Assembly: GCA_973895155.1 (NCBI GenBank)
Contig: OZ316894.1
Coordinates: forward strand, 26,962,340 to 27,026,339
Direction of reading: 5' to 3'
DNA: 64,000 nt
Origin: Marsupella aquatica
Taxonomy: Eukaryota; Plantae; Marchantiophyta
Under the pieces are notes generated by a model, which was not told the origin of the DNA, ran no database searches, and worked only from the letters and a program-made list of their open reading frames with translations. Positions within the stretch are counted from its first letter, which is position 1; the number at the start of each line of letters is the position of its first letter. Below are positions 30,001 to 63,600 of the stretch, one piece after another. The translations under genes and the position numbers were made by a program.

Positions 30001-30271
30001 CATCCCATCCATCTTCTACTCCATCATAGTCATCATCATAATCATCAGGCGTCCCTTGCCAATAACTCTGGCTCCTTCTAGGGTATGGATTATGTGATTT
30101 CTCTCTAGCTGCCCACCTACCTGGGACTTGATGAGGGCCCTGTGCATCTTGCACAGGTGCATTTTTCTGTGAGCCCCCTGCATCTGGGTCTCCATCCATA
30201 TCCAATCTTTCCTCTTCACCCCACTCTCCAAGCCCCATGTCTGTCTCCATGTCATCACCCTCTTCCCCCAT
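27089..30271 (-). CDS. CACTA-2 second gene (TnpA/TNP1-like), multi-exon; exact structure uncertain
   Basis: Transposase_24-like segment (ILKQERHRLKRMW...LDQWTRLI...KSELMSNARGKVKHLSQAGRGSY) in 28904-29566. C-terminal Transposase_23-like FHGKVVPDDHVVV...LPLP...IADAVGSLVLWP in 27089-27682. GGTPGR 18-bp repeats at ~29437-29507. Confidence 0.7.
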
Positions 30272-30448
30272 AGCTTCTGCACAACACCCACAACCAAACA
30301 GGGAGAATCAGCACACTAAATTCAAAGTATCAATCAATTTCATGCATATCCAACTATCCTAAACATCATTCCAGGCAGCAATTCCCGTTATGTGACTCTG
30401 TGCAGGTAGTCATCCTCAACCTCATACTTGCCAATCGCCAGCTGTTGC

Positions 30449-35997: not shown

Positions 35998-36001
35998 TTT
36001 T

Positions 36002-36019
36002 TGGCGCTAGATGGAGGGG
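36002..36019 (+). other. Primer binding site, tRNA-Asn-like
   Basis: TGGCGCTAGATGGAGGGG lies 4 nt after the 5' LTR. It is complementary with one mismatch to the plant tRNA-Asn 3' end as I recall it (...CCCCTCCTTCTAGCG-CCA). Confidence 0.7.
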
Positions 36020-36066
36020 GCATTTCTTAAGCCGTGAGATATGAAGTTAGAACGGAAGCGTAGGTA

Positions 36067-38679: not shown

Positions 38680-38963
38680 GACACTAAGGATGACCGTAGG
38701 AAAAGCATAAGGGAAGTAGATGGGTACGACAGTGGACTGGAGTCAGCCGATGAAGTACGTTGGTTAGAATGCCTCACTAACCTAACCGAAGAAGGTGTCT
38801 TTGGACCAGAGGTACCCCCCAGCGGATTATGGCAAGAACCAATGGAAGGTGACTTGGAAGAAGAAGACGAAGAGGTCGAGGACTGCTTTACAATAGAATC
38901 CACCTTTTTAGCTGCAATTCCGGAGGAAGTAAAGGATGTAGACCAATTGGATGAAACGGCTAA

Positions 38964-41900: not shown

Positions 41901-41984
41901 CGCCTCAAGAAATACTATATGGACGAAGATGAAGTTGTTCGCGAGGACACTTCACAATTAAGTGGGGAGCTATGTGATGCCTAG
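38964..41984 (+). pseudogene. pol: pol: reverse transcriptase, RNase H, integrase
   Basis: WVSPIVIVPKK, DYRKLN, DGYSGYNQI, MPFGLCNAP, FIDDF. RNase H DVSG..IGSVLSQ and YSTTEREALG. Integrase H..H/CDPC, LVSDRGTHF, YHPKANGLTER, WLGPF. TGA at 40998 and an apparent deletion after IKPG (~40805). Confidence 0.96.
41960..41972 (+). other. Polypurine tract
   Basis: AAGTGGGGAGCTA directly precedes the 3' LTR TG and lies inside the last integrase codons. Confidence 0.75.
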
Positions 41985-44900
41985 ACAGGAATCACTCGGC
42001 CGGTTAAGTGGGTAAAGCAGGGAGGCACCCTAGGAACACCTTAGTATAGTGACAAAACAAGGAAAATATAAACAATTAGGGGCAACCATGGAACCCGGGC
42101 CGAGGCCGGAGGTAAGGCTAAGGGTGAAAACCCGATTAGGGTTAGGGCGCGTTAAGCGTCGGCGGCTAGGAAGGATCAACGGGAAGAAGGACCGGCAAAG
42201 GAGAGGGGTAAGGAGCGCTTGCAGGAGATAGTGGCTCATTGGCGAGCACGAACTAGGCAGACGACTACGGGAGGCCAACTACTGTCAGCTGCTTAGGCAA
42301 GCACTCGGGGAGAGAGTAGATACCGACGATCAACCTAAGGAGGGTATGAGCAACGTCAATCAAGCGGCACATTTCTGGGGATGCCTGTTCGAACGGGCAA
42401 CTGAGTACATCAAGACTTACGAGGACGAGGAATCAGAAAGGGCAGCTCGAGAACGGCAGGAGCTCGCTCGATTGTGGGAGCTGCAGAAGACGGCTTTCTT
42501 AGGAGGCGAACTCATCAAGGACGAGTTCCAGTGGACGCCTACTTCCAATCAACTCGATGATCTTCTGTTTTGCAAAGACAGCGTCGTCGGCATCCGAGAG
42601 GCCATCAAGAACTGCAACGACATACACTAGGAATTAAAGGGTAGCACGGAAAGGTGGACCCAGGCAACGGTGCTAGGAGAAACCTCCACGGCAGCAAAGA
42701 TGAAGAGGAAGGGAGCCGTCAACGATGAAGCCACCCCGGCAAAAAGAACGAGGTCGGCGGCACCAAAGAAGCCAGCCGAGCAGCAGAGCAGGAGGCAGGG
42801 AGAAGCCGAAGAGGAGGAGGTCGATCCCATCAAGGCCATTCCAACCAGGGATGACACCTGGAAGGGCTGGACGGCAACCCTACCGGTGGAGGTGCAACTA
42901 CATTTTGCACGGGAGGAGGATGCATGCTTTACGGCCATGCAGACCAAGAATACCAAGGCTTCATGGCCGGATCCGGCTTGGAGGCCTTTGTAAGATTACC
43001 ATGGCTGAAGCCGGAGGTACCGGAGTCAGACCTATTAGAATTCGTGGGGTCATGGGAACCCGAGACCAATTGCACGAGGATATATGGGAAGGATTTCTAT
43101 CTTACTCCCAAGGTAATTGCCGAAGTGTTTGGCCTGCCGATAGGCAATAAGACCAAAGTTGATACCAGGAAGACCTTGCCTAACAAGGAGTTCCGGTCGT
43201 TCCCCGGGCCATCAACGAAGAATGGCTTCTTCCGGAACACCTGCACCAACCCGCACATAGGAGAGATGATCGACTTCTTGCGGGTGACCATGCATTGTAA
43301 CTTGCCGAGGGCAGAGATCGGCAAGGCACAGGTCTATCTGGCAGAAAGGCCAGACCCAAGCCGGGACTACAACGGGTACCTCCTCAACCAATTGAAGAAG
43401 ATCTTAAAGGAGGAGCAGTAGGTAATCGGCATGGGGAGCGTGTCGCGGCTTGGCTATCACATGCCACTGTTGTGCCGGTATGCCAGAGGTCAGACTTTTG
43501 CCCCGGTACTTCCCCTACAGGTAAGGGCACCCGAGGAAGCTCCAACGCCGAGGCCGTTGGCTGAGAAGCCTCAACCACCTGTTAGTCCTACGATCGAGCA
43601 GGTGTTTAGGCCCAGGAAGGAGGACTTGCCGATGCAGCAACCAGGCATGCAGAGTCTGCTGAAACTACTGGAGAAAGAAAAAAAATCGACATCGGCAACA
43701 ACAACGGCAACGGCAACAATGCAGGACACTACTACAGAGGTAGGCCTACACCGGCTCACAAGAGAAAACCCCTTTGCTGGAGACAAGGAGAGAATCAGGC
43801 CGGAATCCAAGCCAGGTGTTCGAATGTACGTGGGAACCTCAAGCTCCGAATCTGAGGTAGAATTGCCTGAAGCTCCTACCGACGAAGAGGAGAGGGAGAA
43901 GCCGGACGTCCAAGAGGTAGAGGAGGCAGTGGAGGACTGCAGCCATGATAATTCCGGCTATGGGTCGGACCATCACGTTCCAGGAGTAAGGACCTGTGGC
44001 CGGTTTGTCCCCACACTTCCAAGGGTAGTGCGAGGGGACCCCAACCAGCAGAGTAGCCCTGAGTCTCCCCCACCAGGATGTTGCTCCCCCGAGCTTCGAC
44101 GGCATAAAACAGACGGTGCAGGAATTTCAGGAGCGAATCAAGCAGGAGGAGGAGGCCGCCCTGGCTAAGGAAAAGGATTTACCAGGAGGAGATTGGCCGG
44201 AGGACATCAGGCGGCTAGCCGAAAAAGGAAGCAAACCTCTAGCCACGATTGAAGAGATCCGCAGGACGGCTTGGGAGCAGAGGCCACGATGGGCGATGCC
44301 GATCACTTCTACTTACTCCACCTACGCTAAGAATAGAGCCATGGAGTATGGTGAGATGTGTGGGGAACTTGCGCTCGGCATCTTTGGAGAGGAGTTGGAG
44401 GTAGGACCCTTTTTCCATAGGGAGCAGTTGGAGAAGCACCAATTAGAAGAAGCGGTGGCTTTAGAGAGAAGCAAGAAGGACGAGGTCATTCGGCGGCTTA
44501 GGAGGATGGAAGCCGAGATTGAAGATCTAAGGGCGGCCAAGAAAGCCCAAGATGAACTGCGGATTAAACGACATGAGCTGAACATCATGCAGGGGCAGTT
44601 GGACACCGCGCAGGCTGATAATCAGAATATCAAGGATAAACTGACTCAGACGCAGGAAGAGTTGGCCGACACGATCAAAGAGAGGGAGAAGTGGAAGCAA
44701 GAGCTGAAGAATACAGAGGAGGCCCACATAACAGCCAACAGCCGGGCCATGGCGGAGACCCAAAGAAAGGAATGGGCGTTGAAAGGGGAGCTCGAGAAAA
44801 TCCGCGGAGCCCTTGAGCAGAAGGAGGCCGAGTTAGGGAAATCCTATCAAGGGATTATGGCGCTGCAGCAGGAGCTTGCGTCCCTGACGGCCAGCTTCAA

Positions 44901-46632
44901 GGCCGACCTAAGGGAGAAGGACGAGATGCTCGAACAGACTTACGCCAAGATGAACCAGATGGAGTCTGTCATCATTGCAGAGCTCGACAAGGAGCTAAGA
45001 GCAACCCGGGAGGAGAGGGCTACCTTGAAGAAGGAATTGGAGGAAGCCCACAGGGAGCAGGAGGAGGCCAAAAACGAGCTGGAGGGGGCACGTAAGGACC
45101 TGGATGAAACCCAAGAGGAGTTGGAGGAAATCACGAGGAAGATGGAGAACCTACAGCGGCGGGCCGACAACCAAACAGAGCGGCTGAAGAAACAAGCCGC
45201 AGTATTTAAATGCTTAGCTGCAGCAGGTCCATCTCCCGTTGGGACAAACCAGTTACCAGGGGTGGTAATTGCCGAAGGACAAGCCGCGCCACCTGCACCA
45301 GTGCCGGGAGTAAGTGGGAAGGGGAAGGGACCAGCTGCCGAGCCACCAACGAAGAAGAAGCGGAAACCTTCAGGGTCAAGGAGTAATACGACTTCACAGG
45401 CCGTGGTGATCAAGGAGGTAGACCCAGCACCGACCCCAGACAGGGTCACGGCTAAGGATCCAACTACCCTAGGGGAAGGGGAGGCCGAAGCCAAGGGAGT
45501 GGCTGAAGCCGAAGCCGTGGGAGTGGCTGAGGCCGAAGCCGTGGGTATTGCCGAGGCCGGTGTCGAGGCTGAAGCCAAAGGTGGACCCAGTCAGGCCGAG
45601 GGAGAGTTGACTCGGTCAAGGGCAGGTAATCTGTCAGTAGGCGGGCCAACGGTAGTGGCTGAGGAGGAAGTGTTGGGGGCGTCCATTGAGGATCCACCAC
45701 CGGTGTCGTGACGGTGCAAGGGCGCCGTTCCTTTTAGGGAGGGCGGACGTGGAGGGAGGAGACGTGAGTGGGCAGGGCGGGCGCGGATCTCCACGTTTAG
45801 GATTAGGATTAGAACCAGGAGCGGCCCTGACACTTAGCTTAGTGGGATTGCGGTTCCACTGGTAGGAGCAACACTTGTGCTCCTGCCTTACTGTACATAG
45901 GTAGATTCGGGCAAGTAGATTACTGTCAGGTAGATTAGGCTTACGATGCAAAGAATGGCGGATCCACTACCAGGATAAGTACCTGGGCAGCGGGGAGCTC
46001 AGGGCCTCTTCTTTAGCAAGTTTTTAGTTTGCACCAGCCGGGCTGGGATCAAGTAGTACGAGAAGCTCTCGGTTAGTCATACAGTGACCCTTGTGTATAT
46101 TCATGTTTCCTCATGCCTAAGAGCTGAATAGAGTTGGCCTCACGGCTTAGTTCGCAGAACTTGTGTATGAGATGTACTGTTTGTATGGCAAGTGCATGGT
46201 ATGACTCAGTCAGAATGAGTCATTTTGCTATTTGTGTGTCGCATTAACTTGTGTGAAGAGTGCCCACATCAACAGAAGGAAGGAAAGTAAGCAGGGGAGT
46301 GAGAGTTGGATGTGTCAAGCTGAGAGAGGTCTTAGCGGCTTAACCAAGCCTATTGGGGATCATTCCGGCGGCGGAATCCAAACATACCTAACAAGACGGA
46401 GGGGAAGATAGGGGAAGACAGGGGAAGGCCTATATTAGGCCGGCTACGTATCTCATGACCCGATGAAGGATCTGTCCAGTATATGTGTGTAAAATGTTAA
46501 TAGTAGTAGTAGAAGGTTAGCAGCGTCCCATGCCGCTAAGCCGCGGAAACGGCCTCGCCAAGCACGAAACCTGCGGGAATCGGCTTGAGCTGGGGGGTTT
46601 CTTGGGTTTAGGGAGCCATGGGACGCACCACA
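41973..46632 (+). repeat. 3' LTR (4660 bp)
   Basis: TGTGATGCCTAGAC...GGGACGCACCACA, a direct repeat of the 5' LTR. Confidence 0.96.
42088..45711 (+). pseudogene. LTR-encoded ORF (3' LTR copy)
   Basis: Same protein. Stops at 42229, 42628 and 43419; frameshifts at ~42951 and ~44076. Confidence 0.85.
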
Positions 46633-46759
46633 CAACTCCTCCGTTGTCCTCACATGTACTGCCTCTGCACGTACATCCATGACCATATCAGAGTCCAATC
46701 ATGTATAGTCATAGACACAGGTGCCAGGTGCGAGACCGGTGTGAGATGTCCTCATCTTA

Positions 46760-47329
46760 CTACCACATCAAATACGGATACCAATCCTGTTGTCGATGCC
46801 ACTCAGCCCTGAGGTACTCAGGCATGTACATTAAGTCATCAAGGTCTAAACCCTGCTCATGCCATCGTGGTCTTCGATCCGTGCCTACAAGCAGTGGCAG
46901 CAGTGCCCTCCATGGTGCACATGTTGCTACCAAGTCCCTCCACTGGGTACTAATTAGTCTATATTTGCAGATATCTTGTGCGCCAGACACCACAAGAACC
47001 CTCGGCCAGACATGTGTAAGAACTATATCATCTGCCAAATCAGGCAACAAGGAACCACCTACAGCATCGTGCTTGTCTAACTCATCTGCTGAAAAGTAAA
47101 TGTCCTCTTCCGACTGTGCATCCTCATTCACCACAGCATTCACAACACATCCAAGGTCTGCAGGCATTATCTCGGATGGAGCTACACTCTGTCTGGTTAC
47201 CAATCCACACAAGTAAGCCCAAGCAGTAGCCATGCACGATGCAACCCGTAGGAGGACCCTACATAGGGCCTGACGGTCTGGAAGAGGCAGCATACCCACC
47301 AAAGTCTTCAGCCAAACAGAGCCCAGCAA
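46760..47329 (-). CDS. F-box-like cargo ORF in CACTA-2, probably decayed
   Basis: LLPDLADDIVLTHVWPRV......ICKYRLISTQWRDLV fits the F-box pattern LP.LPDDI...IL.R.....R.VCK.WR.L. Confidence 0.65.
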   Translation of the reverse strand: MLGSVWLKTLVGMLPLPDRQALCRVLLRVASCMATAWAYLCGLVTRQSVAPSEIMPADLGCVVNAVVNEDAQSEEDIYFSADELDKHDAVGGSLLPDLADDIVLTHVWPRVLVVSGAQDICKYRLISTQWRDLVATCAPWRALLPLLVGTDRRPRWHEQGLDLDDLMYMPEYLRAEWHRQQDWYPYLMW

Positions 47330-47469
47330 GTAGATTCACAGTCACACCCCACGCAGCAGGAAACAACAATCACTTCAACTGCGACCAACCATGACAAGAT
47401 GAGTTAGTTCAAGGATCACATTTATTACAAAATTGTGTTTTATACAAAAATATGAGGGACTCCTACTCC

Positions 47470-48225
47470 TCACTCTCTCCCACCTTTGCTAAGCATACAT
47501 CTCCGCTGAATCTTGGAGGGCCAGGCCTCAAAAATATCAAAGTCCCAAGCATTCTGTCGCTTCCCTCTAGCTACTGATTCCAGAAGCCAATCAGGGGAAA
47601 GCACCCAAAGATTGTTGTTCATGACAAAATCACGCACTGTTGTCTTAAAGAATTTTCTGCATATTTTCATGTATGACAGACCTACAACATGAGTGGAGGT
47701 TTCTGTTAGACTCTCCTCCACTGTCCCACCTAGCTCAACAACTATAGACTTGTACAGTCTGCACTTAGTCTCCCCAATTCCTTCTTCTGCAAATACCACA
47801 CTGAACCCCTTCATAATGGTATTTCTCTCCTTGCCATGCTCATTCAATATAGCATCTGCACGCATAGGATGGTGTCCTATGTTGACAACAGGTCCATATT
47901 GGACAGAAGCAAAGTTGGGTTTCTCTGCCGCTGCTTCATAGGCTTCCTTTTCAGCCAAAGCCTCTGCAGTGGCCTCCTCACTCTCCCACAACTCATATTG
48001 CTCAGTACTCTGTACACACCTATGTTTAACAGAATCGGTCAGCCAAGAGACTTCAACTACTTTTAGACCTTGGTTGGTAATGGCAGAAACAATGAAGGAC
48101 CATGACCACTTGTTCATCACATCCAGCCATGTCCCCGCAACAACATGTGTAGTCTGTGGAGTGATGTCCTTGACTTCAGTCCCATGGAACTCTGAGAATC
48201 GTTTTTGTACGATTGGCCAACTCAC
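47470..48225 (-). CDS. Tandem BRCT protein, similar to the plant DNA polymerase lambda N-terminal BRCT; start uncertain
   Basis: Two units: ITPQTTHVVA...VVEVSWLTDSV and MKGFSVVFAEEGI...IVVELGGTVEESLTETSTHVVG...VLSPDWLLESVARGKR. Confidence 0.8.
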   Translation of the reverse strand: MSWPIVQKRFSEFHGTEVKDITPQTTHVVAGTWLDVMNKWSWSFIVSAITNQGLKVVEVSWLTDSVKHRCVQSTEQYELWESEEATAEALAEKEAYEAAAEKPNFASVQYGPVVNIGHHPMRADAILNEHGKERNTIMKGFSVVFAEEGIGETKCRLYKSIVVELGGTVEESLTETSTHVVGLSYMKICRKFFKTTVRDFVMNNNLWVLSPDWLLESVARGKRQNAWDFDIFEAWPSKIQRRCMLSKGGRE

Positions 48226-48911
48226 TTGGGTGAACCCTAAACCCTAAACCCTAAGCTTTGATTCCAGCCAACAGAGGCGGGTGGTCAACCTTTGTACGTT
48301 TCCTAGAGGCCATGTACACACGGGCCACCTAATCACTGCAGACCGGAAGATAATGCGTTCACCTGATAATCGGAGGGCCCTTAAAATGCTGCGTTTATAA
48401 CTTGGTCCAGTCCAGTCGTCTGGTGAGTCTCTGCTCCGATTCCAAATGGGAGAAATATTGGGACAAACGTACTAGACACCTGCAAGCATGCACCTCATAG
48501 TTTGAATATGTGCCTTCACAATATTGAAGGTGACAAGTGCAATTGTTTTGTGATGCCACATACAGATGTTGTAAATGGGCAGACATTCAATGAGAATACA
48601 AAATGTTGGTACACTTTAAGGGAATTCTCGCAAATTAAATAGCCTTGTAACTTATATGCTCATAATGAGAAGTCCTGATTTAATTTAAGCATTGTCATGT
48701 AAGTCGTGATCAAAATGATTGCAGAGTTAAAAAAGTTCCTAGAAGGCTTAAGGGCAGTTTTTGAAGGCATGTACCCAGGAACAAGTAATGAACTTAGGGT
48801 ACTTGTTGCCTAAGCATCCTCTCCTACAGAGGTCCTTCTTCTCAAAATTGGAATGTCTGCAATCTCCAAGGTATCCACATCAGGTGCACTATGCATGTAT
48901 ATTATTCAGGT

Positions 48912-49592
48912 TCAAAGCCAAGAAATGTGATCTCTCATGGGAGTGTGCAAAGTAGGATCTATGGCATGGCGATGACAATAGAAGATCCATCGATCAACAC
49001 CATGTGCAGAGTGATCATAGATGTGTCTGTCACAAGCATAGCCTTCTGCTTGACGCTCCTTCAAACAATGAAAGTGCCACATGGTGGGACACCTAACACA
49101 GTGGACTATGTCCACCCAGAAATCTTCATCGTGCTGACCACATGCCTTGCACTTATGAAGTGGGCAAGCTGTGGCAAGATCGGGAAAACATGAAAAACAA
49201 AAGAACCTCACACAATATCTGTCAGGGCATTTCCTAACAAGTGGTGGAGCATCAACAGAGCCCTCATAAGACCCCAACTTCCCACACTGTGCACACTTAG
49301 CCTGCTTCTCCAAACAATCAGTGCACATCCAGCCTCCCTGGTGTGCTGACGGGAGGCCCACCCCTGGACAGTTGTTTTCTGCAGCAAGGTCAGACTCCGG
49401 GTTGAGGTGGAAATGCCTCATGCAAGGGCCCTCACATATGGCTAAGCCACCACCATCGTCACAAATGGCACAACAATGAGCTGCCTTCTGGAAAATCTGA
49501 CTTGCGGAGAAGTTACTACCATCTGGCCCAACTACACCTGTGTTGCTCACCTCTGTCCCCCGCTTCTTGGCTCGGATTTTAGGGCGTGCCAT
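48912..49592 (-). CDS. Stand-alone EDM2/NSD-type composite PHD finger protein (226 aa)
   Basis: CAICDDGG.L..CEGPCMRHFH, CTDC....KCAQCGKLGS, CPLHKC..C, CVRCP..WH..CL, FYCHRHAIDPTLHTPMRDH follow the EDM2 PHD cluster in order. Intact ORF with a basic N-terminus and a splice-acceptor-like site just before the ATG. Confidence 0.88.
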   Translation of the reverse strand: MARPKIRAKKRGTEVSNTGVVGPDGSNFSASQIFQKAAHCCAICDDGGGLAICEGPCMRHFHLNPESDLAAENNCPGVGLPSAHQGGWMCTDCLEKQAKCAQCGKLGSYEGSVDAPPLVRKCPDRYCVRFFCFSCFPDLATACPLHKCKACGQHDEDFWVDIVHCVRCPTMWHFHCLKERQAEGYACDRHIYDHSAHGVDRWIFYCHRHAIDPTLHTPMRDHISWL

Positions 49593-50261
49593 GCCTACGC
49601 ATGAGACAGATAGTACAATTTAGCAGAGTGCACGGACAATACAATTTAGTGCAGTGTACAAAAAGTACAGTGTAGCATATAGACTAGAGTGGCAATTGCT
49701 ACTGCAATGAAATGTTCACACACATGTGCAGAGTAGACATACTTTTTGGTTTGTTGAGCCCACACTAAAAACTGATCCCCTCGTACAATAGCTCCACCTA
49801 CACCTCAATTTTGTGGCTATGATTCACCAAAGGAGATCTGCAACAAGATTTAATGCATTTGAATCACATATAACAGTCGTGACATGTAAAACAGGCATTT
49901 TTTGAACAGGATTGGTATCAAGCACTGTGATCAGGGTTGTAATTTATACATCCTAAATAGGCTATGATAGTGAATGAGACAAATAAGTTAGGCAGAAATC
50001 ACTTTTTCCAGGTTATCACATGGCCCATTAATTCCAGTCTTTGAAAGGAGACTTTTAAGTGAGCTTGCTAGCCTCTTAAATTAGGATATTGTACTTAGTG
50101 CAGCCATAATAGGATAAGTTATGTACTGTTGACCCTAAACCCTGGACCCAAAATTGGTCATAATTCAAAATCTTAAGTAAATATCCTCTCTGTTCAAGTC
50201 AAAGTGTTAAGTTATAGGTCAATGGTCTCTGGTTTGTGCATGCGGTGTGACAAGTGGTCCT

Positions 50262-50711
50262 CTAGAGCGTGTGATCCAAACATGTGTAGACACCAAAGTG
50301 ACCGGTGGTGGGGTCTGGGAGGGCAGGACAAGTGACATCGCCAGGCACACTGCAGGATGGCGAGTGGTTCCAGATGATACATTGTGCTCTGTGAAAAAAC
50401 CGACATCCAAGAGAACGGTCATCCAACTCTAGGCCAGAAGCCCTATAGGCAGGACAGTCATATTGGCAACTGTGCACACACCCTTGGGCCCTAATTTGTG
50501 GCGGGTCATGTATGAGAGACAGAAATACCAAGGATGTTGGGAAGGGTGGAGAAGCAGGTACAGGCCGGCTGTAGTTGTTCCTGGCAACAACTGGGTACTC
50601 AAAGTACCATGCAGACTGGGCTGGAAGGATCCCAAGTCTGACATACTCAAGGCGCAACATCTCTGCCTTGCGTGCAAGCCGCACATGTTCAGCGTTGCGG
50701 GTCCTCACCAT
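50262..50711 (-). CDS. Small Cys/His-rich hypothetical cargo protein
   Basis: 149-aa ATG-started ORF on the same strand as neighbouring cargo genes. CVHSCQYDC, CRFFHRAQC, HSPSC...C...H....C..H. Confidence 0.45.
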   Translation of the reverse strand: MVRTRNAEHVRLARKAEMLRLEYVRLGILPAQSAWYFEYPVVARNNYSRPVPASPPFPTSLVFLSLIHDPPQIRAQGCVHSCQYDCPAYRASGLELDDRSLGCRFFHRAQCIIWNHSPSCSVPGDVTCPALPDPTTGHFGVYTCLDHTL

Positions 50712-53700
50712 AAGTGTTGCTTTTGTGGAGATGTCGTGTGTTCACGTCCTCTGATAAGCACCTTCGATCAGCAAGGTGAGCAGGAGCTGTACTTGCCTCA
50801 CCAACAGCAACCAACCTTAAATTATCAGTTCCCACTCACTGTGTCATTCCATTGGTTCCAGCTAGGGGTCACAGTGTAAACATAGCATGAAACACTCCTA
50901 ATCAACTTGCTTACAAACTACAATATCCAGAAAGAGTGAAAGTCTCACCCTCCAGTGAGCAGCAGAGAGGTAGTTCACTAGATGTGTTGATGTGCAGTTA
51001 AACCTCCACTATTGCTTACTTCTGGTGTATGCTGCTCAGAAGAAGACATATTAGTAGCAGCAAATTGCAAATAATGGCCATAAGCAAACCGTGAGAGTTT
51101 GCAGAATGCTACGACAAATCCATCACAGCAGTGCTCCACAGGAATGAAACCAAGCAAAATTTGGTGACCTCGGCCAATGACAAGGCCAATGTAGTGAACA
51201 ATCCTTGACCGATCAGGATATGGATTGGAATTACAATTAGTCAGCTCTTCTTCTTTGTTTTCTAACTCTGGGGGAAATGAGCATGACCAGGGAATTCTTT
51301 GAGAAATAGAAGTGCACAGGGAAAATGAAATTGGCTCATTCAGCTGCGCAAGACCGGCCATTGCAGCAAACTTGGACAGTTGTTCCGCAATACATAAAAT
51401 ACCCTGACTTACATGCAATCGATACAATCTGCTTCTGTTGGCTGTCCTATAGCTCACGGTAGTGCCGTTGGGATAGGGTAAGTGAATATTGCCATAGCTG
51501 AAGCACATTGAGCTTGCAGCAAGAAGTGAAGGAGCATGGCCAAAAGCAGAAAAGACAGACAGGTTTTACAAGAAGAAACTAACAACCGCCAATCTGCTCA
51601 AATCCGCTGCATAGATCAAACCCTCCAAACTACACAGCCCTCCTTTGAAAACAATCCAATGTGCTTTGGCTGGTGGATGACAAGGACTGGGAGAAGAGGA
51701 AACGTCTACACAATCAATCCCAATGACGGGACATAGAGACCAGGCACAGAGAGGATTTGTGCTTAGACAAAAACCACAAATTGTAGCATGGGCGCCATAG
51801 CATTGGGCGGCAATGGGAAGAATTACATCAAATGAGTGGACAGAGAATGAACAGTCCGGTTATAGGCAAACAGCGACTGATGCCCTGATGCAATGAAACA
51901 CGCATTGACATAGCGGAGGGACATAAAAACTACATAAGCCAACTTACTGACCTTTTAAGGCCCACAATTTCAAGGGGAGGGACAAAGACAGCAATAACAG
52001 ACGCAGAGACAAAGTTGTACTCTGTCAATTGAGTAGGCAAGTGGGTGGGTGAAGATCAACAACCAATGTAGCAGCGCAACCAGAGTAGCAACAAAGAAGC
52101 AGGTTGCCCTCAGTCTCCTATTTTTCAAGCAGCTCGTGCTCGCGGTCAATCTCCTATTCTGCAAGCAGCTCACGCTCGTCCCTCTTGTTCTGCAAGCAGG
52201 TCATTCTTGTCGGCGATGGTGCAAGCTGTCCTCCTAAACTCTGACACTCAAAATGAAAAGACCAAGCACCTCCAATCTGTTTGATCCCTTCCGCAAGCAG
52301 CCGAGCGGCAGACGATAATGTAGGGATCAAGAACCAAGTGCCAGGCGGACATTGCACAAAATGAGGACCGGGGGCAGAGACAAAATCTACCGAAATCTAC
52401 CGAAATCTACTTCTTGGGGTCCAGCCCACGGATGGACATCATGCAAGGTGGTCAAAAATGGTAAGTGCAATTGTTGGAGAGCTGTACTCGCGATTACTAA
52501 CGGTGCATCCACAAAATGCGTCATCAAGTTGTCAGTGCGGCCACAACAATTTTGACAGTCTCAGGATCACAGGTCCACAAACAAGTTGCAAATGAAGACA
52601 CACAACGTCCAGGAGGGAAAGTCCGCAACACTAACCCTTTGTAAAGCCCCCGAGCTTACCTTCTAGCTGCCGACGCAAAGAGAAAACCTACTCAGACACT
52701 AAAGCAACCCTAAACTCAAAGTCTCACCTTAGCGCAACAACTCCTGGATTGGATTCAGCTAGCTCAGGCTCAATGAAGCATGTCGCCTCGGGCTCTCCGG
52801 ATCCTCCCAAGGCAGCAAACAAGTTAGGGTCCACGGTCCTTGTACCTTCACCGCACCGTTGTGTCCTTCCCAATGCCTCCTCTGTAGTTGCGTCTTGTCT
52901 GCAACTCTACAGCTCCCCGTGTTGCTCTGCCGCACTTAGTTATATTCCAACGCCCGATCGTGACCAAAAAGAGTTTTCTCCTGCTGGACAGCACTAGGCA
53001 TTTGTTCAATCTCTTGATCACGCGTAAGCAGCTACAGGTATGAATCACTCAGTTGGCAGCTCAATACGCTTACAGCAAGAGGGCGCAATAGGTAGAAGCT
53101 CGCGCTACCTAGACCAGCACAAGGACAAAGCATTAACATTGAAACTGTACCATGGAGCTGGAGAAAACCACAGAGTAATTGAAGCCTAACAATACCCTTC
53201 TTAGCTCCCGACTCCAAACTCTCGGCTCCCAGTTTGCAAGAACAAGCACTATGAAAATATGGATTCCCACATTGACTGTGTCCGCAGAACAGATGCAACC
53301 CGCATGCAACTTCACCAGCTCAACGGCAGCTTGACAACTGAAGGACCTCCCAATGAGCCTCACGGCCTCCCGATGCTCGTTATGGGTGCAGCAAAAGGGT
53401 CTATACCACAACTGTGACCGAGATTGTCACCCAAAACCTTGAAGAAACCCCAACCTCCGACTCCTCAAACTCCGACAAGCTCCTCACGAACGTTGCAGCA
53501 GCCACAACCTTCTTCGCCCTACCAGCCAAAAACTAAATGTCCCTAAAGGAGATCGAGCAGGAATGCAGGTCTATGAGTAGACTGCAAGCGCAAGGTTAGA
53601 TCACTGCAACTGCCTGAACACTGCTCCTCGAGAGCATAAACAAGCACATAACGCGAGGGAAGTTCACTCCGCAATGGTCGCAAAAAGTGGGCAACACTGA

Positions 53701-55172
53701 AAGGAAAACCCTACGTAAAACCCCGAACACTCCACCCCTCACGTTCTAAGTTCAATGACAATGGCGAAAACTCCAAAGAGACTCCCAAAGTGAAGTTTAG
53801 TGCCTGAAACCGAATTAGGGGAAGCCACTCAGCCTTACCGTTTGAGTGAGCCGTTGAGTGTCACCCAAAGTGGGACAAAGCTACAAAGTGTTACTGCATG
53901 GCCAACTTAGGCAATGAATGGTCATATTTGCACATACATGGTCGGTAGTGACATTTTATTGCACGCCGTAATCAGGATTAAGGTTGCCCAACATTATATC
54001 CGGTCCTAAAATGCAATATTCCCGGTGCAAGAATGTGACCTAGCTCTAATGTATGAAAAAGGACCGGTACAAATCTACCTTTGTGCATCTTGACCTTTTA
54101 TAGATGGATTTAGTAATGGCCAAGAATATCTTGACCATCCCTCCATGGTCCAACCTCCATGAACCCCACTTCATTAAACCCAAAACCTTTTTGGTCACAA
54201 ATAAGGACATTTAATGAGTTATGCCCCTTGCTATCACCCTCTTTATAGATTTATTTTTTTGTTTGAAATTTTACATTTATTCCGCGTGAACCCCACGGAT
54301 GGGGGAACCAGTAGGCCAAATGGCATCATAAAACCTCAACACCCAAAGGAGGCAATAACAAAGAGTTACTCAACCAGGGTCATCAGATCAGGCAAAGATT
54401 GCGAAGCCGTTCTTCTAGTGGTCCATGCAACAAGTAACAACTAGGGAATAAGCACTAGAAGGCGCAGTAGGTCAGCATAGTGTAAGTGTAAAGTGTCAAA
54501 GCATTGTCTAGTACTAAATTAATCCACCTGATTAGTAAGAAGGGGGTGTATACTGTAATGGGAAAAAGAAAAAAAAACCAAGGCATGAGCAAGGGCCACC
54601 AAGAGTGGTGCAGCTATAAGCTATAGGGATTGAACACAATGCGGGGGGGCAGTGGCACTATGTATGAGGAAATCACGGGAGTATCGGTGTCAAATGAGTC
54701 GACAAAACTCCCAGATAGCCACACAGTATAAATCAATCTCACAGAAGGCTGCCATCAATGGAGGAAACAATTTGACACGACCCACATCTGAGAGTGTGAA
54801 TTCGCTCGATCTCCAGCAGTTCTTTGGCACTCGATAGACGTCGGTGCTTTCGGCTCAAAGATGAAGGAGAATTACCCCTCCTCAACATAGAGTGAACATT
54901 ACCCATGATGTGCTAGACTATTCACCCTTCACAAAGTAGCAAGGTTACTTCTCATAGTCTTTTAGTGAACCATAAAACTCTCATAGTCTTTTCTAGTCTT
55001 CAACAAAACCGGTGCAATGGGTGCGAGTTGTTTTAAGTATGGAAAAAGGACTTAGTGGGCATAGTCCTATAAGGTATGGTCTAAATTGCCCCGGTTTCTA
55101 CTAGTGGGTTTATGCACACCCTTAAGCAACATTACAGTAGAAAAACTATAATAGCACCTCAGAGAAATGTAC

Positions 55173-55546
55173 CGTGAGGTTGGGGAACCCTGGAATAGCG
55201 GAGTCCTGGATTCAGTTTCCAATTGGTCCCAATCATCTTCGTCTAGTTCCATGACAGGAGGGTCACCCTCAGGTACATGAGGTCCAAAGTGGATGTCCAC
55301 AAGGTGCGCAAAAGCATCCTCTTCAACAATAGGTGCATCCATATCATCCTCTACATCTTCATCAAAATCGTCATCATGTGCATCATGGTACTCATTCACA
55401 TCCTCGTCCACATCCTCATCCTCATGCACATGATCACTCTCAACATCTTCGTCGTCAGAAAAAGATAATGTGGCTCGCATGTGGAACGAACGGGCTGACT
55501 CCGTCATCATCGATGGATGAGGTGTAGGTGTTATATTTGGACCATC
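55173..55546 (-). CDS. CACTA-1 transposase acidic exon
   Basis: Acceptor TTGCATAG|GAT at 55547. D/E-rich, ends ESRTPLFQGSPTSR at donor GTAC (55172), in frame with the exon starting at 26172. Confidence 0.85.
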
Positions 55547-55689
55547 CTATGCAAGACGTCAATATTAGATAAGGTCATCCCCAAATTAGACAATGTGTTC
55601 CCAATAGTGCATGAGGTAATGAAGGTCAAAGAATCCAATATAAGTCTCACTCTGAGTAATGAATAAGTGATCAATAACATATATAATCT

Positions 55690-56505
55690 TCAATGCCAAT
55701 CATAGTCTACAAATATCTCATCCCCTGCTCGAATGGTGCGGGTGGCATGTGTCAGGATGTAGTGACTGCATCCCAAGGGCAAACGAGGGTGACTTTGGTC
55801 ATGGTACTCATGCCACTCAGCGTTGGGGCGGAACCCCAAACGCCGACACCCCACTGTGCTATTGATGTAACCCGCCAAGTTTCCAGTACGAGGGGGGTAA
55901 CCATCCATCTGAGTATACCTAGGGTCCAACTTTAGTGACATGCCATACCGACCAAAGGTTGGGCATTGGCGAGACAAGATACGCCATCTATGGGCCGAAT
56001 ACTTTGGCCCATAAAATGGAATCAACTCGGGCAGGTCCTCAGGTGCACAACCTTCCGGCACCACAATATCCACGAGTGCAAATAATCCAAGACCTACGTT
56101 GTCTCCCAATGTGGATGGGAGGAGGACCCATGGCCTATCCCAAACTACAATAGGCTCCCGAACAAGCAGGACCATAGGGAGGCCAAACTGGGTTGGGAAT
56201 GAGTCCTTTATGATGTCCAAGGCTCTCCCTCTTAACTCTCTTGGTGCTCGGGAAAAAGAGGCATCAAGAAAAGGACAGTGTGGCGGCACCGTCCTAGGGG
56301 TACGAGACGTAATGGACCGAGGTCTAGTGGTGACCTCTACTCCCCTCTCAATAGGGTGACTCTGAATGACCCTCCTCCTCCTATCAAAAACACGGTCTAT
56401 TGCCCTTAACGTGGCATCGAGTGCTGATGGGGGAACTAGTGCTGTGAGCGCGCGATGTGCAACCTGTCTCATGTGGTCCAAGGGCGGAGAGACCACACAC
56501 AAAAT
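55690..56505 (-). CDS. SET-domain exon (putative lysine methyltransferase) within the CACTA-1 transposase gene
   Basis: PSTLGDNVGLGLFA, FYG, GNLAGYINS, PNAE, ATRTIRAGDEIFVDY are canonical SET motifs. Open frame; acceptor AAACAG|ATT at 56506 after a pyrimidine tract. Confidence 0.88.
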   Translation of the reverse strand: MLCVVSPPLDHMRQVAHRALTALVPPSALDATLRAIDRVFDRRRRVIQSHPIERGVEVTTRPRSITSRTPRTVPPHCPFLDASFSRAPRELRGRALDIIKDSFPTQFGLPMVLLVREPIVVWDRPWVLLPSTLGDNVGLGLFALVDIVVPEGCAPEDLPELIPFYGPKYSAHRWRILSRQCPTFGRYGMSLKLDPRYTQMDGYPPRTGNLAGYINSTVGCRRLGFRPNAEWHEYHDQSHPRLPLGCSHYILTHATRTIRAGDEIFVDYDWH

Positions 56506-56652
56506 CTGTTTCACATGTGAACAAGAGAACTTCAGAAATCAGGGAAAAAACCATTCCAACTAAACACTCAAGAAACTCAAGAAACCCAAACATGTTATAT
56601 TCAAAAATGGACTTAATGAATTGAATAGTGTCAATAAAGGTTTATGAATTAC

Positions 56653-57171
56653 CTGATGTGTCGGGGGTACGTAACGGCCGTGGAGGCCTAAATGGCTAAG
56701 GACAGTGGTCCTCTCGTGGGAGACGACGCCCTTGCATCTACTACATGGGCAGGGCATCTTTCGGACTGGGCCAATCCCCTGAAGGGCAGCCATGGCCTCT
56801 CCAAACCTATCCTCATCCTCCGGCATGGGTGATTGGTGTCGGGGTGTGTGGTCATCAGAGGGAGACCTGGACCGGCGGTGGCGGTGGGACTGTCGATGGG
56901 ACCTCCTATGCCTTCGTCGCTCCCGATGTCGATGATCCCTAGATCGGTACTCCCTATCTGAAGACTGATCCCAACTCCTCTCAGACGAATGGTGCCTGCT
57001 CCTATCAGATGATAAGTCCCTCCTCCTCTTGGTCGAGTGGTATCTCGACCTCGCAGGTGAGTGCTCCCTCCTCCTCTCCCTCCCCCTATCATGAGAGCGG
57101 TACCTGTCTCGGTGATGTGCACCTCCATCATAGCGATCATCAGATGACCACTCCGATGAGCACGAGGCCAT
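56653..57171 (-). CDS. CACTA-1 first coding exon: RS/RH-rich region + transposase-associated zinc-binding domain
   Basis: ATG at 57171, then RSRSPS-type repeats and MPCPCSRCK........VLSHLGLHG (Transpos_assoc pattern CPC..C...HL...G). Donor CAG|GTAATT at 56652. Confidence 0.85.
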
Positions 57172-57689
57172 GGCCTGCAATAGTACACACACATATACAC
57201 GCAAACTTGCAAACTCAGCCTTGGAAATGGAACGTCGGGACCACTATAGTACCACAATATTTACGTCAAGTAAAACAAAGTACTTTCACTTTACGTCGCC
57301 GAGAACACAATACACGATGTATTTCTTAAACCCTACGTCATGTACCGTACCCCACACGACGTTACAGTAAACCCTACCTTTTAACGGTGTACAGAACAAC
57401 GTTTAAATGAAAACATTGTCTAGCACAACGTATTACTAATCGATCAATTAGGGCATCATCGTGAAAAATGACGTAAATAGACAGAGAACGGCGGAAACAC
57501 ATTGTTGCGAACTCTGCCGCATTCTATTCGGAAAATACCGGGGCATAGTGTCGAATGTGAGTCATTCGACCATTCCGCACACACCTCACCCCACATCTAG
57601 TGTTCTGTTCTGTTCGTGGCTCTAGTGAAGCTCTAGTGAAGCTCTAATCTTTGTGAAGGTCATCTACATTTGCTCCAAGTCTCGCCTCA

Positions 57690-59854
57690 ATGTCACGTCC
57701 AGCTTATCTGCCCCTCAGTATCAACTTTGATGTTGTGAAAGTTTCCATGGAAGACCCAGAGGAGGTGGAGAAGGTTCGAACAGCTTTGCGGTCAGCACAT
57801 TCACTGATTGATGCTTTCAATCAGAGTTGGCAATTCATGGGAGGAACTGGGACGAAGGAGTCACGATTTTTGGAATACCTTCAGAACATAGAAGAGAACG
57901 CTCCAGCATCCGACGTTGAGCCCGACATTCAAGCACCAGAGTTCTTGCGCGACCTTCCGGGGGCATCACTTGATCCTCTTGCTTCCTTCCCGCCCTTGAT
58001 GGACTCAGTCTGGGACTATCCCTCGTTCTCTGGGATGGAGCCGGATTCACAACCACCCTGTGTTACTCCCATCAAGAGCCAAGTGAGGATTCAGAGATAT
58101 GAGCCTGATGATTCAAGTACAGAGTTGCGGACACACAGAAGGCGACATCATTCCCGTTCTTTGAGTAGCAATAGTAGCATTGAGAGGAGACAAAAAAGGG
58201 GAAGGGAAAGGAGCGCAGAGAAAGAGACAGCCACAGCACACACAAGAGAAAAAGGGCTGAACGAGATTCGAGGGTGGACAGAGATAGGAGAGGTCGAAGG
58301 TCACATCGACATTCACATTCAATCGGAGGAGGTCATCGGCGAGCTTCTCCTCACCAAACCGTTGCTACTCCTGCCAGCAAAGAACAACTGCCGGTCATCA
58401 GCCTGGCTGCTTTTGATGCGAAGCCAGAGGTGCTTGATGAGAAGGCGCTAACGAATCGAGTGCAGGTCTGCTGTACGAAACACTGCCCTGGGTGGACGAC
58501 TTGGAAGGACCTCATGCACAATACAAAGAAGTTTCAAGTACTCCTCAATGACATACAGGCCGGATTCAAGAATGGCAGAGAGATTGATTTTCGACACATC
58601 AGGCAGAAGATTGTGAGTTTCCTTGCTGACAGAAGATTCAGGTGGAGAAGCAAGGTCCGAGCAATGAAATGCGAGAAGACAGGGCAGTACCGTAAGCCTG
58701 AAGGGATGGCCGAGTCGGACTTCAACTTGATCGTGTCTGAACTTGAAGCACCCCCAGACACCCCAGTAGGAAAACGAGTGCACATGGGTGACAAAGTCAC
58801 TGCAGCTCGAAAGAATAGTGGACGCCTTCTAGTAACCAATTTCTGGGGGCAAGGAGGATGGCGAGGGTTCCTCGCAACCTACGTAAGTCTCGGACCCAAC
58901 TTCCATGTTTTCATTTCGCTGCTCCGGTGTAAACCATAGTGTAACGTCGAGATTTTGAAATTACGTCGCCTGATTCATTCATAACGTCATCCATAACAAC
59001 GTTAACTTTGATTTGTAACTTCATCTGAGACGTACCTTAGGAAGAACGTCGTCCTTGAGACGTTACATGTACCGCTTTAGTGAAAACGTCATTAGAGCGA
59101 CGTTAACTAGATATGCAACGCATGGAACGACGTTAGCACCGATGCTGAGAGGGTTGAATACGTGCTTAGGAACGACGTTCTTTTGCTTTCTCGCAGAAAC
59201 GCAAGTTTGGTGTCGATGCTGAGCCGTCGGAGGAGGAGCGGCTGTACTCGAAACGGTATGGCCCGGCAGCGCTATGGGCCAAGTTGGCCTCAGTCCCGGA
59301 GGATCACCGGGTAAGAGCTAAAGTGATTGCTAGGTTGTAGTTGACTTTAGGCCTACTCTGTGACATTAACTGACCAGAATGCTATCATGCAGGTGGAGGA
59401 TTGGACTCCTCCGGAGGGCTTGGTTGCACGGGCCATCCCTGAGGATCACTTGCCAGCCAGGGTACCGCCCGAGGAGGGTTTGCAGGAGGAGGCTCACGTA
59501 GATTGCGGGCAGGAGGAGGCAGAGACTCATGGGGGGCGTACTAGTGGCCAAGGCCGGAGGGAGAGAGAGAGAGCCAAGGGAGGGAGAGAGAGGGAGATAG
59601 GGAGAGATAGGTCAGATAGACAGAGGGGGAGGGAGAGGGAGAGGAGGAGGAGGGATGACACTAGGCGACCTCCACACAGTAAGGGGAGTAGGCCAGTGAC
59701 TACTCATAGGGCTGCAACACAGGCAGATACGTTGTCCCCCAGTACCACTAGCTTAGAGGAGGATGACTCCAGGTACGAGTTGCGCCCGAGAGGCGTACAA
59801 CCCACTTCTACACGCAGGTCTGGACGTGATACCAGGCGGACTGAGCGTGACTAG
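57690..59854 (+). pseudogene. CACTA-1 TnpA-like gene, divergently oriented; exons ~57690-58882, 59197-59310, 59393-59854; one frameshift in exon 1
   Basis: Transposase_24-like features: TTWKDL, IVSFLADRRFRWRSKV, KPEGMAESDFNLIV, AARKN....FWGQGGW. In-phase GT-AG junctions. Confidence 0.65.
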
Positions 59855-60602
59855 GGTATAGCCTATTTTACTTGCCCGACTTCATCCTCCATTTTGTACA
59901 TATTTGGCCCATAACAATATTATCTAATACGACACTTTTCGCGGATTACAACGTCTATACCATATGCATATTGAATGTGTATCCCTAAACCCCAACTGCC
60001 TACCCAAATAATGCTCACCCCATTGTAACCCTAGCTTAAGTGTGTTTATAACCTCCAATAAGGTTGTATGGCAGGGTCCGACATAATATACGGGGCGTCG
60101 TTCATTCATAAAGTTACCAAGCATCTCACAAGGTATGACCCAGACGTAGTCTTCCACTTTCACACAACGTCGTTCATGACATCGATATATGATAACAACG
60201 TCTTATCACACCACGTAAACCAATGAACGAATTCACATTACATCAAACGGAACGGTGTCCCAGACATCGTTACAAACACTGACGTTGTCTTATACGAGGG
60301 AGTCAACGTCGTCAATCACGACGTTTTGTTTGTATTAACGTCACTCCGTGCGACGTTCAATGGACATGGAAATCTACATTAGCCCAGTACTCTAACGATG
60401 CATAGGACGTCGTGCACACAAAGAACCACGTTGGCGGTGTGGCAATGTGCGTTGTGTGAGACGACGTAAGAAACCACGTCAATATAGACGTCCAGAACGT
60501 TGCCAATTTTACCTTGGGGATTCCGTGTTTCCGTTTAGAGTTTCATACGTCGAGATTAGCCTGTTGTGAGGCAACGTTAAGTTGAGTCAAAATGTAGTTG
60601 TG

Positions 60603-63600
60603 CTATCGGTTTCATCTGCAGCTGCACGACGCTCTTCCTTTTCCTCCTCGGAGTTTGTTGTACCTTGTTCCTCTCCACCTTCACTCGATTCATCATCAGA
60701 ATCAAAATTGAGAACCGACCGAAGCTTATCTCTCTTTTTTCTGTCGGCAGTAGGAACAGGTGGAGGTAACACTGCAATCTCTTTGGGAGACAACAAATCC
60801 ATGAAAACCTATGAAGCGGTTTCAATAAATTCTTTCCGGTGTTCTATCTCGAGTACAAATCGTCCAAAGAAGTCGCCAGCAATGTAAGAGCTTCCAGCCC
60901 CAACAGTCCAATCCATAAAAATATCACGAGGCCGTGTGACAAGCTCTATAACAAATTGCATAAAACCCATAGACAGACGAGCATTTCCAGCAAACTCCAT
61001 TTGCGGGAATGGATCTGATTTGAGCGAAGAGAGTCCGATCAAATTGGTAACCGAAGGGTCCTCACTGATGGACAGCGGCCGAAATTTGGGGTCTTTGGGA
61101 ATTTTACATTTCCCATTAATTCGGCCAAATATGTCGAGCCTGAGGGTAAACATCTCTCGGTCTGTCTTTGCCGCATACATCGGGTCAGACATCACAACAT
61201 TATGCGAGCATATACACTGAAATTTCCTTGACTCCTGACAGGCAGCAATGACTTGCGACATGGGATCGTACTCCCCACTGTGTAGAATTACAAGGAACCC
61301 ATCATCTGATAAAAATGGATCCATGGATTTGAAAAAAGATCTAGCCATTGAGTGATCTGGAATGTTCCATTTAGGAACCTTCTTATCAATGATAGATGGT
61401 TTGAACCCGGTCGGTAGGTAAATGAAGCCGGCATCCACTCCAAACGATCTTACTTTTCCCCCCGAACAACTCCCTTCTCTTTAAATCCCAACTTAACGAG
61501 GTCTTTTCCCCATTTCTCCACATCACTAACCCACTCGGGCTTCTCCTCCTTGTTGAACGTCGAGTCAAAAAATTCAGAAAGGCTTGTCTCAACCATGCAA
61601 TGGCGAGACACAGTTGTTTTGAAGTTTCCAACTTCACGTTGGAAACCAGAAGCTATAACACTCTCCCTTAAAGATTGTCCACCTTCGACAGCTCTCTTTC
61701 GTTTCTTCCTGGTACTCGTGGCGTCGATAGGAACTATAACCTTCCCTTTGTCAACTGGAGTAATGGGGTCCGATCGAGATCCCGTGTTTGCCTCGGAAAC
61801 TTCAGGTGTAGCATCCTTTTTCGTATCTCCCATTCCCACCGTATTAGACTTCCTCCCTCCTAAAATATAACCAGGTCGTAGTTAGAATAAGTACTTTTAA
61901 AGTATTGAAAGAAGCTAGCGCCTGGCGCTAACCAAATGCAATTCACTTAAGTCGCAACCGAAGCCTAATAACCAAGAAAGAGAATACCCTCAACAGAATA
62001 TTTTTTGCCAGCGCCTGGCGCTGGCAAAATCATGGATAGCAATACTTACTCTTCTTTCCAGATTTAGTAGACTCGTTCGGTGCTGCTAGCTCCGCTTTGG
62101 CTTTCGCGCGAGGTTTGCGACTCCGGTCCACATGCACAACAGTTGTTTCACAGATAGTTTGCAAGTTTGTGGCAGACTTGTCTACATCGTCAAGTAGACC
62201 CTGCTTCATGTCGGACACAAGTTTTGCTGGCATCTGAGACTTTGAAAGCTTATGGAAGGCATCTTTTTCCCTTTGATCAAAAGGAGAATCCCACTATCTG
62301 TATCTAGATACCAGGGGCAGTGAGTTCTCTCCCATTCTGTCATTGGTCTCGGAGGAAATATGCCCTCCGTGGGGTACATAGAGTACAAATCAGCCAAGGC
62401 ATCATCTTCACTTATTGAAATCCACTTCATAAAAGCTGCAGGATATGCCCAGAAGTAATCAGGTTTGTTTACCTCCATGTGCATGTAGAACCTATACACA
62501 AACCTCTTCGCTCGCTTCTGGTTTCTCCGGGTGTAATCTTCTTTGTCAGGGTACTTTGAAGGCCACATAGTGTGAAAGAACTTATTCTTCACGGAATCAC
62601 CAAATCTCTTGAATTCATTTGTAACAAACTGAACTAGATCATCAAACGAACTACAATTCCACTCTTCCAATCTATTCGCGGGCATGGTTTGCTCAACTTC
62701 ACATAGACATGAATGTAACATGCCAGCAGCAATTCCCTCCACACTATTCCAAGTGATCCAAGTGTGGCACCACTGTTTGACTGGATCATCGTTAACACTT
62801 GCTGGGTGAAAAAACTGTCTCCGCAGCTCAGGATTGCAATGTGCCACAAGTAAAGTGCTTCGTAACTTTGGGTCTAGAGCAGAAACAGCGGTGAACAATC
62901 GTGCGCGGTCCATCGTACATACAACGGTGTCAGGCTTCTTCTCTCTCTTGTTTCTCTCTGTGATAGCATACATTTCTGCACATGTACTGAGGAAATCTTC
63001 AAATTCAGGACTTAATAAGGGCGTAATTTTTGAAGACTTCACTGCCCAATCTTTGGTTGCGTCTTTCATCATGGCCGCATGCCGTTTTGAAATCTCGTCC
63101 GCCGACCATGGACTCCCTTGAGCCTCCGCTGCCTCCATGTCGAGTTTGAATTGATGCGAGTACGACTTTATCTTATTCTCACAAAGAATGTAAACAAGTG
63201 CTTCTTGTGGCATCTTCTTTGTATACCATGACCCCTTCCGAGTTTTCAGCGGAATGCTTTCAAACTTCTTGAAATTACCCGGGTCAATCAGTTTACTGTA
63301 ATACTCAAGGTCATGTGCCAGAATTCGTTTGATTCTGTCCGCATCCAGGATCCAGGAAGGCTCTACAACTGCTTGGCCAAGCCTACACGAACAAACGTTG
63401 AGAGTACAAGTCAATGAAAAACAATTCATGTATAAGCAGCGCCAAGCGCAAGTAAATACAGCACTCGCAAGATTTAAGGAAAGAATTGGAAATCATGAGA
63501 ACTTACTGATTCACGGTGTGCATAGCTGCCTCAATTTCAATGAGAGATCCCTTGTCTCCTTTAAATATTGTACAGAGCACACGAGGATGATATTTTGGAT

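Follow-up and report, generated by a model that had tools for sequence, protein, structure and literature searches.

A bryophyte family of CACTA transposons carries a conserved SET exon in intron 1 of its transposase gene, and exon 1 is probably spliced either to the SET exon or past it. This reading grew out of a 64,000-nt stretch of Marsupella aquatica DNA (the window), which is transposon-rich plant sequence. The host element is a CACTA/EnSpm DNA transposon that extends from 20701 to ~60603 and has a nine-exon transposase gene. Splicing of exon 1 to the proximal acceptor would produce a predicted zinc-motif-SET protein of ~444 aa, from a transcript that would end in the AT-rich spacer behind the SET stop (55547..55689), and splicing past the SET exon would produce the transposase, with a predicted length of ~1183 aa. 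The features of the element are given below.

60591..60603, minus strand: left end CACAACTACATTT, matching the right end with 13 nt in common; the outermost CACTA is lost
57657..59854, plus strand: divergent second gene, lying on the left-end side of exon 1
56653..57171, minus strand: coding exon 1, 519 nt/173 aa, low-complexity N terminus and CxCxxC...H, Transpos_assoc-like
56506..56652, minus strand: intron between exon 1 and SET, 147 nt, GT-AG, 31% GC
55690..56505, minus strand: SET exon, 271 codons and stop; helical N-terminal part, linker, and SET fold at ~residues 99-271
55547..55689, minus strand: AT-rich spacer, 143 nt, 34% GC, candidate 3' UTR/poly(A) region
55173..55546, minus strand: transposase exon 2, acidic, ending PLFQGSPTS, 374 nt, phase 0 in and phase 2 out
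26263..55106, no strand assigned: nested CACTA element in transposase intron 2, 18-nt identical inverted ends, AACC on both flanks
22412..26172, minus strand: span of the seven later transposase exons, GT-AG and phase-consistent (26172-25866, 25472-24968, 24864-24551, 24453-24303, 24199-23920, 23601-23116, 23027-22412)
20701..20718, plus strand: terminal inverted repeat CACTACACAACTACATTT, the element's 3' (right) end, intact
22001-22500, 25501-26000, 57001-57500 and 59001-59500: internal blocks dense in ACGT

The transposase coding sequence totals 3552 nt in nine exons, with GT-AG junctions and consistent phases throughout. As the first-pass annotation had proposed, minus-strand exon 1 (57171-56653) closes at a phase-0 donor (CAG/GTAATTCA, 56652), and the two downstream acceptors, GAAACAG at 56506 and TTGCATAG at 55547, are both phase 0 and in frame with it. 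The intact SET exon it had described was also confirmed, as an open frame of 271 codons from the proximal acceptor to a TGA at 55690. The distal acceptor leads, again as proposed, into the transposase, that is, into the acidic exon and then, 29 kb farther on and behind the nested element, into the remainder of the gene from 26172. Exon GC is 46-58%, that of the six uninterrupted transposase introns is 33-40%, and a change point fitted to the GC profile is 5 nt away from the SET acceptor as proposed. Contigs of seven sequencing runs (six typed '?' and one 'DNA?') include several that span introns. A clean exon-exon joint appears in none of the joints listed (15 of 36 and 6 of 6), and these contigs, of unrecorded kind, are evidence neither way. 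One joint in a contig of run X7 (55353-56486, with a 30-nt side, a depth of 4, and ends other than GT-AG) was dropped.

Exon 1 carries the motif CPCSRC...H and gave a match to Transpos_assoc (PF13963) at E 7.7e-4 and 20 bits, below the 27.7 cut-off. Its description as RS-rich did not hold, as the stretch is unconserved and the relatives are Ser-rich. In the downstream exons, the frame 24930-25508 gave a Transposase_21 (PF02992) match of 130.7 bits against a cut-off of 28.6. The exon translations contain IDG, TDG, CPSC, HLLCH, and VERY, and the acidic-triad residues are presumably those expected from the usual motif. The accessible text of PMC12730594 places C(2)C and H(3-4)H features between D2 and E in CACTA transposases, and that of PMC4158355 gives general CACTA features. 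In-frame TGA stops interrupt the downstream exons at 26051 and 23429, and the copy in the window is decaying. The contrast drawn in the first-pass annotation between an open SET frame and a broken transposase is real but is no more than chance would give: the probability of zero stops in the 813-nt SET exon, given two in 3552 nt, is 0.63-0.87. Because of this, and because 10 of the 22 related loci have a disrupted SET frame, the open frame says nothing of separate selection.

The damaged left terminus means that the flanks of the element cannot be paired for a 3-bp target site duplication. In three related loci (L007, L009, and L021), CACTACAACAAC is present 3.7-4 kb upstream of SET. Counts of the tetramer ACGT per 500 nt reach 11 at one end of the element and 15 at the other, against a mean of 1.3, and the tetramer clusters in the introns too. 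The ACGT-rich end motif is dense (8-14 per 500 nt, the mean being 1.3) in the introns and the promoter region, as expected of internal binding-site clusters. The divergent second gene occupies the same place in five related loci (L006, L007, L009, L012, and L021) and is detectably similar to the gene in L006 (tblastn, E 0.004). It had no Pfam match and no match to the TnpA-like frame of the nested element; by its position and by eye, it is a candidate TnpA-like gene. Close to the right terminus, within the element's 3' end, a 190-aa open frame (21203-21775, plus strand) runs convergent with the transposase and has no Pfam match; its identification as BRCT was not supported (E 0.42). Two Sphagnum-type loci (L011 and L021) have a convergent frame in the same place, with no similarity detected.

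The nested CACTA element itself contains an LTR retroelement. A contig of run X1 tracks 55106-55555 with 3 differences and then diverges at the insertion point, which fits the presence of near-identical copies that would lack the nested insertion. The flank repeat of the nested element, AACC, is 4 bp and not 3 bp. Among the frames of the nested element are a twin BRCT (47473-48243) with E 8e-15, an F-box-like one (46763-47335) with E 0.08, and NSD-like PHD fingers (48915-49619) with E 1e-5, which is short of the cut-off. A Transposase_24-like frame lies at 28907-29566, and 30452-31743 codes for the 3' half of a transposase. The 5' half of its transposase and any SET exon of its own were not found within the window. 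A Gypsy-like element lies at ~31687-46600, with gag/pol frames at 36064-41984 and direct repeats of ~4.6 kb that hold long coiled-coil frames; a third copy of the repeat, inverted, is near 9000-13600. At 16454-18406 (plus strand), a 650-aa open frame contains seven 63-aa tandem repeats (189-nt period) and is coiled-coil-like. Just outside the left end, at 60812-63492 (minus strand), are two frames, one of 428 aa and one of 223 aa. The shorter has a weak match to an N6_N4 DNA methylase (E 0.057), a domain of interest here since it accompanies SET in Plavaka PAG2; this methylase-like frame seems to belong to a neighbouring element.

To place the SET exon in its family, 25 relatives were recognised among 1440 candidates, and the family forms 172 clusters at the 50% identity level; the viral contigs searched held no relative. 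The loci surveyed were 23 metagenome loci, most of them copies of one Sphagnum-type family, and the independent count is therefore five lineages: the window, L001, L002, L003, and the Sphagnum-type L006/L007. These five are not fully independent either, because of shared descent. SET cores of the other lineages are 33-47% identical to that of the window (33-37% for the Sphagnum-type loci). The CxCxxC exon is found in 12 of the 15 loci that extend at least 460 nt upstream of the SET core, the three misses being a pair of SET fragments truncated at the 5' side and a single match that is both weak and distant. A transposase exon lies just downstream of SET in 15 of the 23 loci (including the query's own), and seven of the remaining eight stop within 514 nt. 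The donor and the SET acceptor are phase 0 in all five lineages, across an AT-rich intron of 111-156 nt, and 6 of 6 sequences place the GC change point 1-11 nt from that acceptor. The three lineages with coverage of the transposase acceptor all keep it in frame. Lineages differ in how long the intron before SET is and in how far the SET core lies from its acceptor, and the frame is constant. Indeed, contigs of runs X2 and X7 from a diverged subfamily keep the same order of exon 1, SET, and acidic exon. The first-pass annotation had been open to the objection that other copies might lack the SET exon; instead, the SET and CxCxxC exons recur in five lineages, and, as judged from these alignments, the SET exon is a family trait and not a one-off capture. 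In a quick tree of 81 sequences (26 redundant rows of 107 having been removed), the SET exon of the window falls in a group of nine rows (SH-aLRT 96) in which the only labels are those of Calypogeia fissa, a liverwort, so that a bryophyte host is likely. Distant members of the SET family were seen in Ginkgo biloba and as other Calypogeia proteins with unrelated N termini (P0126, P0081/P0184, and P0097); these could represent additional transposon lineages or else copies that were domesticated. At 10001-10213 of L023, a SET match of low significance (E 8e-5) on a 504-kb metagenome contig has neither zinc exon nor transposase and is probably an unrelated SET gene.

The rate of substitution in the SET exon depends on the depth of the comparison. 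Between L003 and five Sphagnum-type copies, where dS is ~0.45, the dN/dS of the SET core is 0.28-0.34. Comparison of the window with L001 and L002, where dS approaches saturation, gave 0.27-0.29, and the deepest pairs, where dS is saturated, gave 0.17-0.70. Copies within one family gave 0.3-1.1, often ~1, as expected of copies decaying after insertion. In the linker before the core, pN is about equal to pS (0.33-0.35 versus 0.34-0.38), and among variants inside the SET exon, 12 of 21 and 4 of 7 are synonymous when only the best-supported rows are taken. On these ratios, the SET core is under purifying selection between families, with a dN/dS of ~0.3 where dS is unsaturated. The comparison of copies suggested in the first-pass annotation thus favours a conserved SET exon that belongs to the element family, exon order and phases being kept in five lineages in addition.

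The SET exon was recognised by the PF00856 profile at 24.0 bits against a cut-off of 22.4, in agreement with the first-pass annotation. Its predicted structure (pLDDT 85) clearly has a SET fold, which it has in common with the catalytic domains of SET8/KMT5A, Set1/MLL, and EZH2 (Z ~12-12.6); against SET8 and Set1, the model superposes with Z 12.6 and an rmsd of 2.2-2.8 over 122-128 residues. The matches to SET8, Set1, MLL, and EZH2 are all tied, so that no substrate can be assigned. An atlas search gave a top match of 0.96 to a streptophyte SET cluster, with a recognition score under the bar of the tool, and a sequence search of the PDB with the SET exon found no close solved SET (best E 0.076). 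Like the SET8, Set1, and EZH2-type domains, the window domain has GxG, Asn, and the final Tyr, the last in an E-x-x-x-x-Y motif; it differs from SET8, Set1/MLL, and EZH2 in being only 16%-26% identical, in reading NS at the NH position, and in lacking the post-SET cysteines. Across 26 aligned sequences, G140, E263, and Y268 are invariant and G138 is nearly so, and Asn215 together with Tyr268 is kept in 26 of 26. The H/RxxNHxC motif is absent, GYINS being present where RFINH is expected. The NS reading of the first-pass annotation is thus real, and it is family-wide: in 81 sequences, the position is NS in 65, QS in 5, NN in 3, and NH in none, with 8 unmatched by the pattern, which indicates a family signature and not damage. 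The chain stops three residues past the last Tyr. Characterised SET domains close the cofactor pocket with C-terminal segments. PRDM9 is one such case, its C-terminal segment closing the pocket in the available text of PMC4146578. When a natural zinc-SET model was folded as a whole, the zinc region had a pLDDT of 35-56, and the model is uninformative on domain packing for that reason. Taken together, we lean slightly toward lysine-methyltransferase activity for the SET product.

Gene models from other genomes bear on how this product may arise. NCBI predictions in five Sphagnum species and Calypogeia fissa include a type that joins exon 1 to SET, and in the joined models examined, the junction is the site derived from the DNA; similar gene models are predicted in Riccia sorocarpa. 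Two proteins, P0050 (Logan, 2141-nt contig) and P0188 (ENA, 1528-nt contig), carry the zinc motif and a full SET in a single chain; they are 55% identical to each other, with the linker conserved. Protein calls on short contigs are assumed to have been made without splicing, and on that assumption these two come from cDNA or from intron-less copies. In three further predictions (P0040, P0190, and P0104), pieces of SET are fused to transposase. Alternative splicing from exon 1 appears the likeliest route to the SET product. Hundreds of Sphagnum and metagenome entries named 'SET domain-containing' (one cluster has 360 members) are probably transposon genes, an origin that matters for counts of host methyltransferases.

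The single zinc-SET chains of P0050 and P0188 also speak against an account that we regard as unlikely, in which SET is a nested gene with its own Met, expressed either from a start within the intron or through a non-coding leader exon spliced past exon 1, and the zinc exon serves the transposase only. An in-frame Met is found 0-33 codons past the SET acceptor in all five lineages, and one is common to the clade of the window; a SET-only protein from this internal Met is possible as far as its position goes, and other models in the same genomes, 263 aa long, do have their start within the SET exon. Just 3 nt ahead of the exon 1 ATG, the acceptor-like sequence TTGCAG suggests a non-coding leader exon upstream and would suit such skipping. 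A nested gene has no need of an in-frame acceptor, yet 5 of 5 lineages have one; P0009 lacks the Met, and an intron of 111-156 nt would hardly accommodate a promoter. Capture of pieces of genes is known from CACTA elements, and passive, Pack-CACTA-like capture of a host-gene fragment, functionless in the intron, would agree with the BRCT, PHD, and F-box-like frames of the nested element and with the within-family dN/dS that is often ~1. Such capture is very improbable, and largely refuted, given a position and phase that are constant across lineages at 33-47% identity, the 172 clusters, the between-family dN/dS, and the failure of the sequence search of solved structures to return a close host SET.

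It is distinctly unlikely, in our estimate, that the SET exon is a stop-containing cassette spliced to exon 1, or a dead, reader-like SET, that diverts transcripts from the transposase and binds without methylating. A donor-like GTGAGAC at 55650, in the 3' flank of SET and 104 nt before the transposase acceptor, means that the exon may be a cassette and not a terminal exon, and the canonical poly(A) signal AATAAA is absent from the 143-nt spacer after the SET stop. The R and H of H/RxxNHxC are also replaced, and PR domains, which lack many of the SET catalytic residues, include inactive members according to the accessible text of PMC4146578; the same text lists several active ones, among them PRDM9. 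GxG, Asn215, and Tyr268 are nevertheless invariant throughout the aligned family, and purifying selection acts on the core protein, which rules out a pure poison exon.

Under the preferred reading, splicing of exon 1 to SET or past it, the final and most speculative step is that the SET protein would methylate histones on the element's own chromatin and so counter silencing, a role that we put forward tentatively and consider less than likely. The complete scheme, a CACTA-encoded histone lysine methyltransferase made as a splice isoform of the transposase, directed to the element by the zinc module and writing an activating mark, is doubtful as a whole. If it were true, the choice of splice site would decide whether the element writes chromatin or transposes. 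The presence of a small, multicopy SET with the NS motif in many moss and liverwort CACTA lineages makes a transposon-written histone mark directly testable, and the lineages with the SET exon include sequenced Sphagnum, Calypogeia, and Riccia genomes.

SETMAR/Metnase is a single domesticated host gene in which SET is fused by splicing to a mariner transposase. The window locus resembles it in combining SET and a DNA transposase; unlike SETMAR, its SET exon is multicopy, element-borne, and closed by a stop before the transposase. A nearer parallel is Plavaka, of the EnSpm/CACTA superfamily, in the red alga Bostrychia, whose accessory gene PAG2 carries SET PF00856 in the available text of bioRxiv 10.1101/2025.02.11.637652. 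In both cases, a SET domain sits on an EnSpm-superfamily DNA transposon. As described there, however, PAG2 is a separate gene that also has the DNA methylase PF01555, whereas here the SET exon is inside a land-plant Transposase_21 gene; Pfam searches found no PF01555 in exon 1 and the SET exon and no Plavaka family for the transposase at E 0.5. The accessible part of PMC12730594 cites SET genes in HarbingerS and in MuDR families of oomycetes, and that of bioRxiv 10.1101/2025.02.11.637652 cites Helitrons with SET. As far as those texts go, these transposons, like the window element, carry a SET methyltransferase with a proposed role in silencing, but they belong to other superfamilies and hosts and have SET as an accessory gene, not as an alternative exon sharing the N terminus of the transposase.

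Maize En/Spm and Arabidopsis ENSPM3/7 make TnpA and TnpD by alternative splicing, and Spm3 TnpA has anti-silencing activity, as given in the available texts of PMC13547354 and bioRxiv 10.64898/2026.08.24.746577; mention of a SET domain was not found in the main texts of these two. By that account, one CACTA gene there yields a transposase and a regulator by splicing, as is predicted here for two products, but their second product is the DNA-binding TnpA and not an enzyme fold, and the TnpA-like candidate here is a separate divergent gene. Transposon-borne SET genes and two-product CACTA splicing are thus already in print; a SET exon within a land-plant CACTA transposase gene, with its shared-exon layout, was not found in a literature search whose scope lay outside Repbase Reports, most subscription journals, and supplements. 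Catalogues of SET genes on transposons exist for oomycetes and red algae, and the accessible accounts treat the function of these genes as untested. The plant anti-silencing factors VANC and TnpA, in the portions of the literature available, bind DNA and lower DNA methylation; the family described here, if the proposal is true, would be a land-plant transposon anti-silencing system that writes histone marks.
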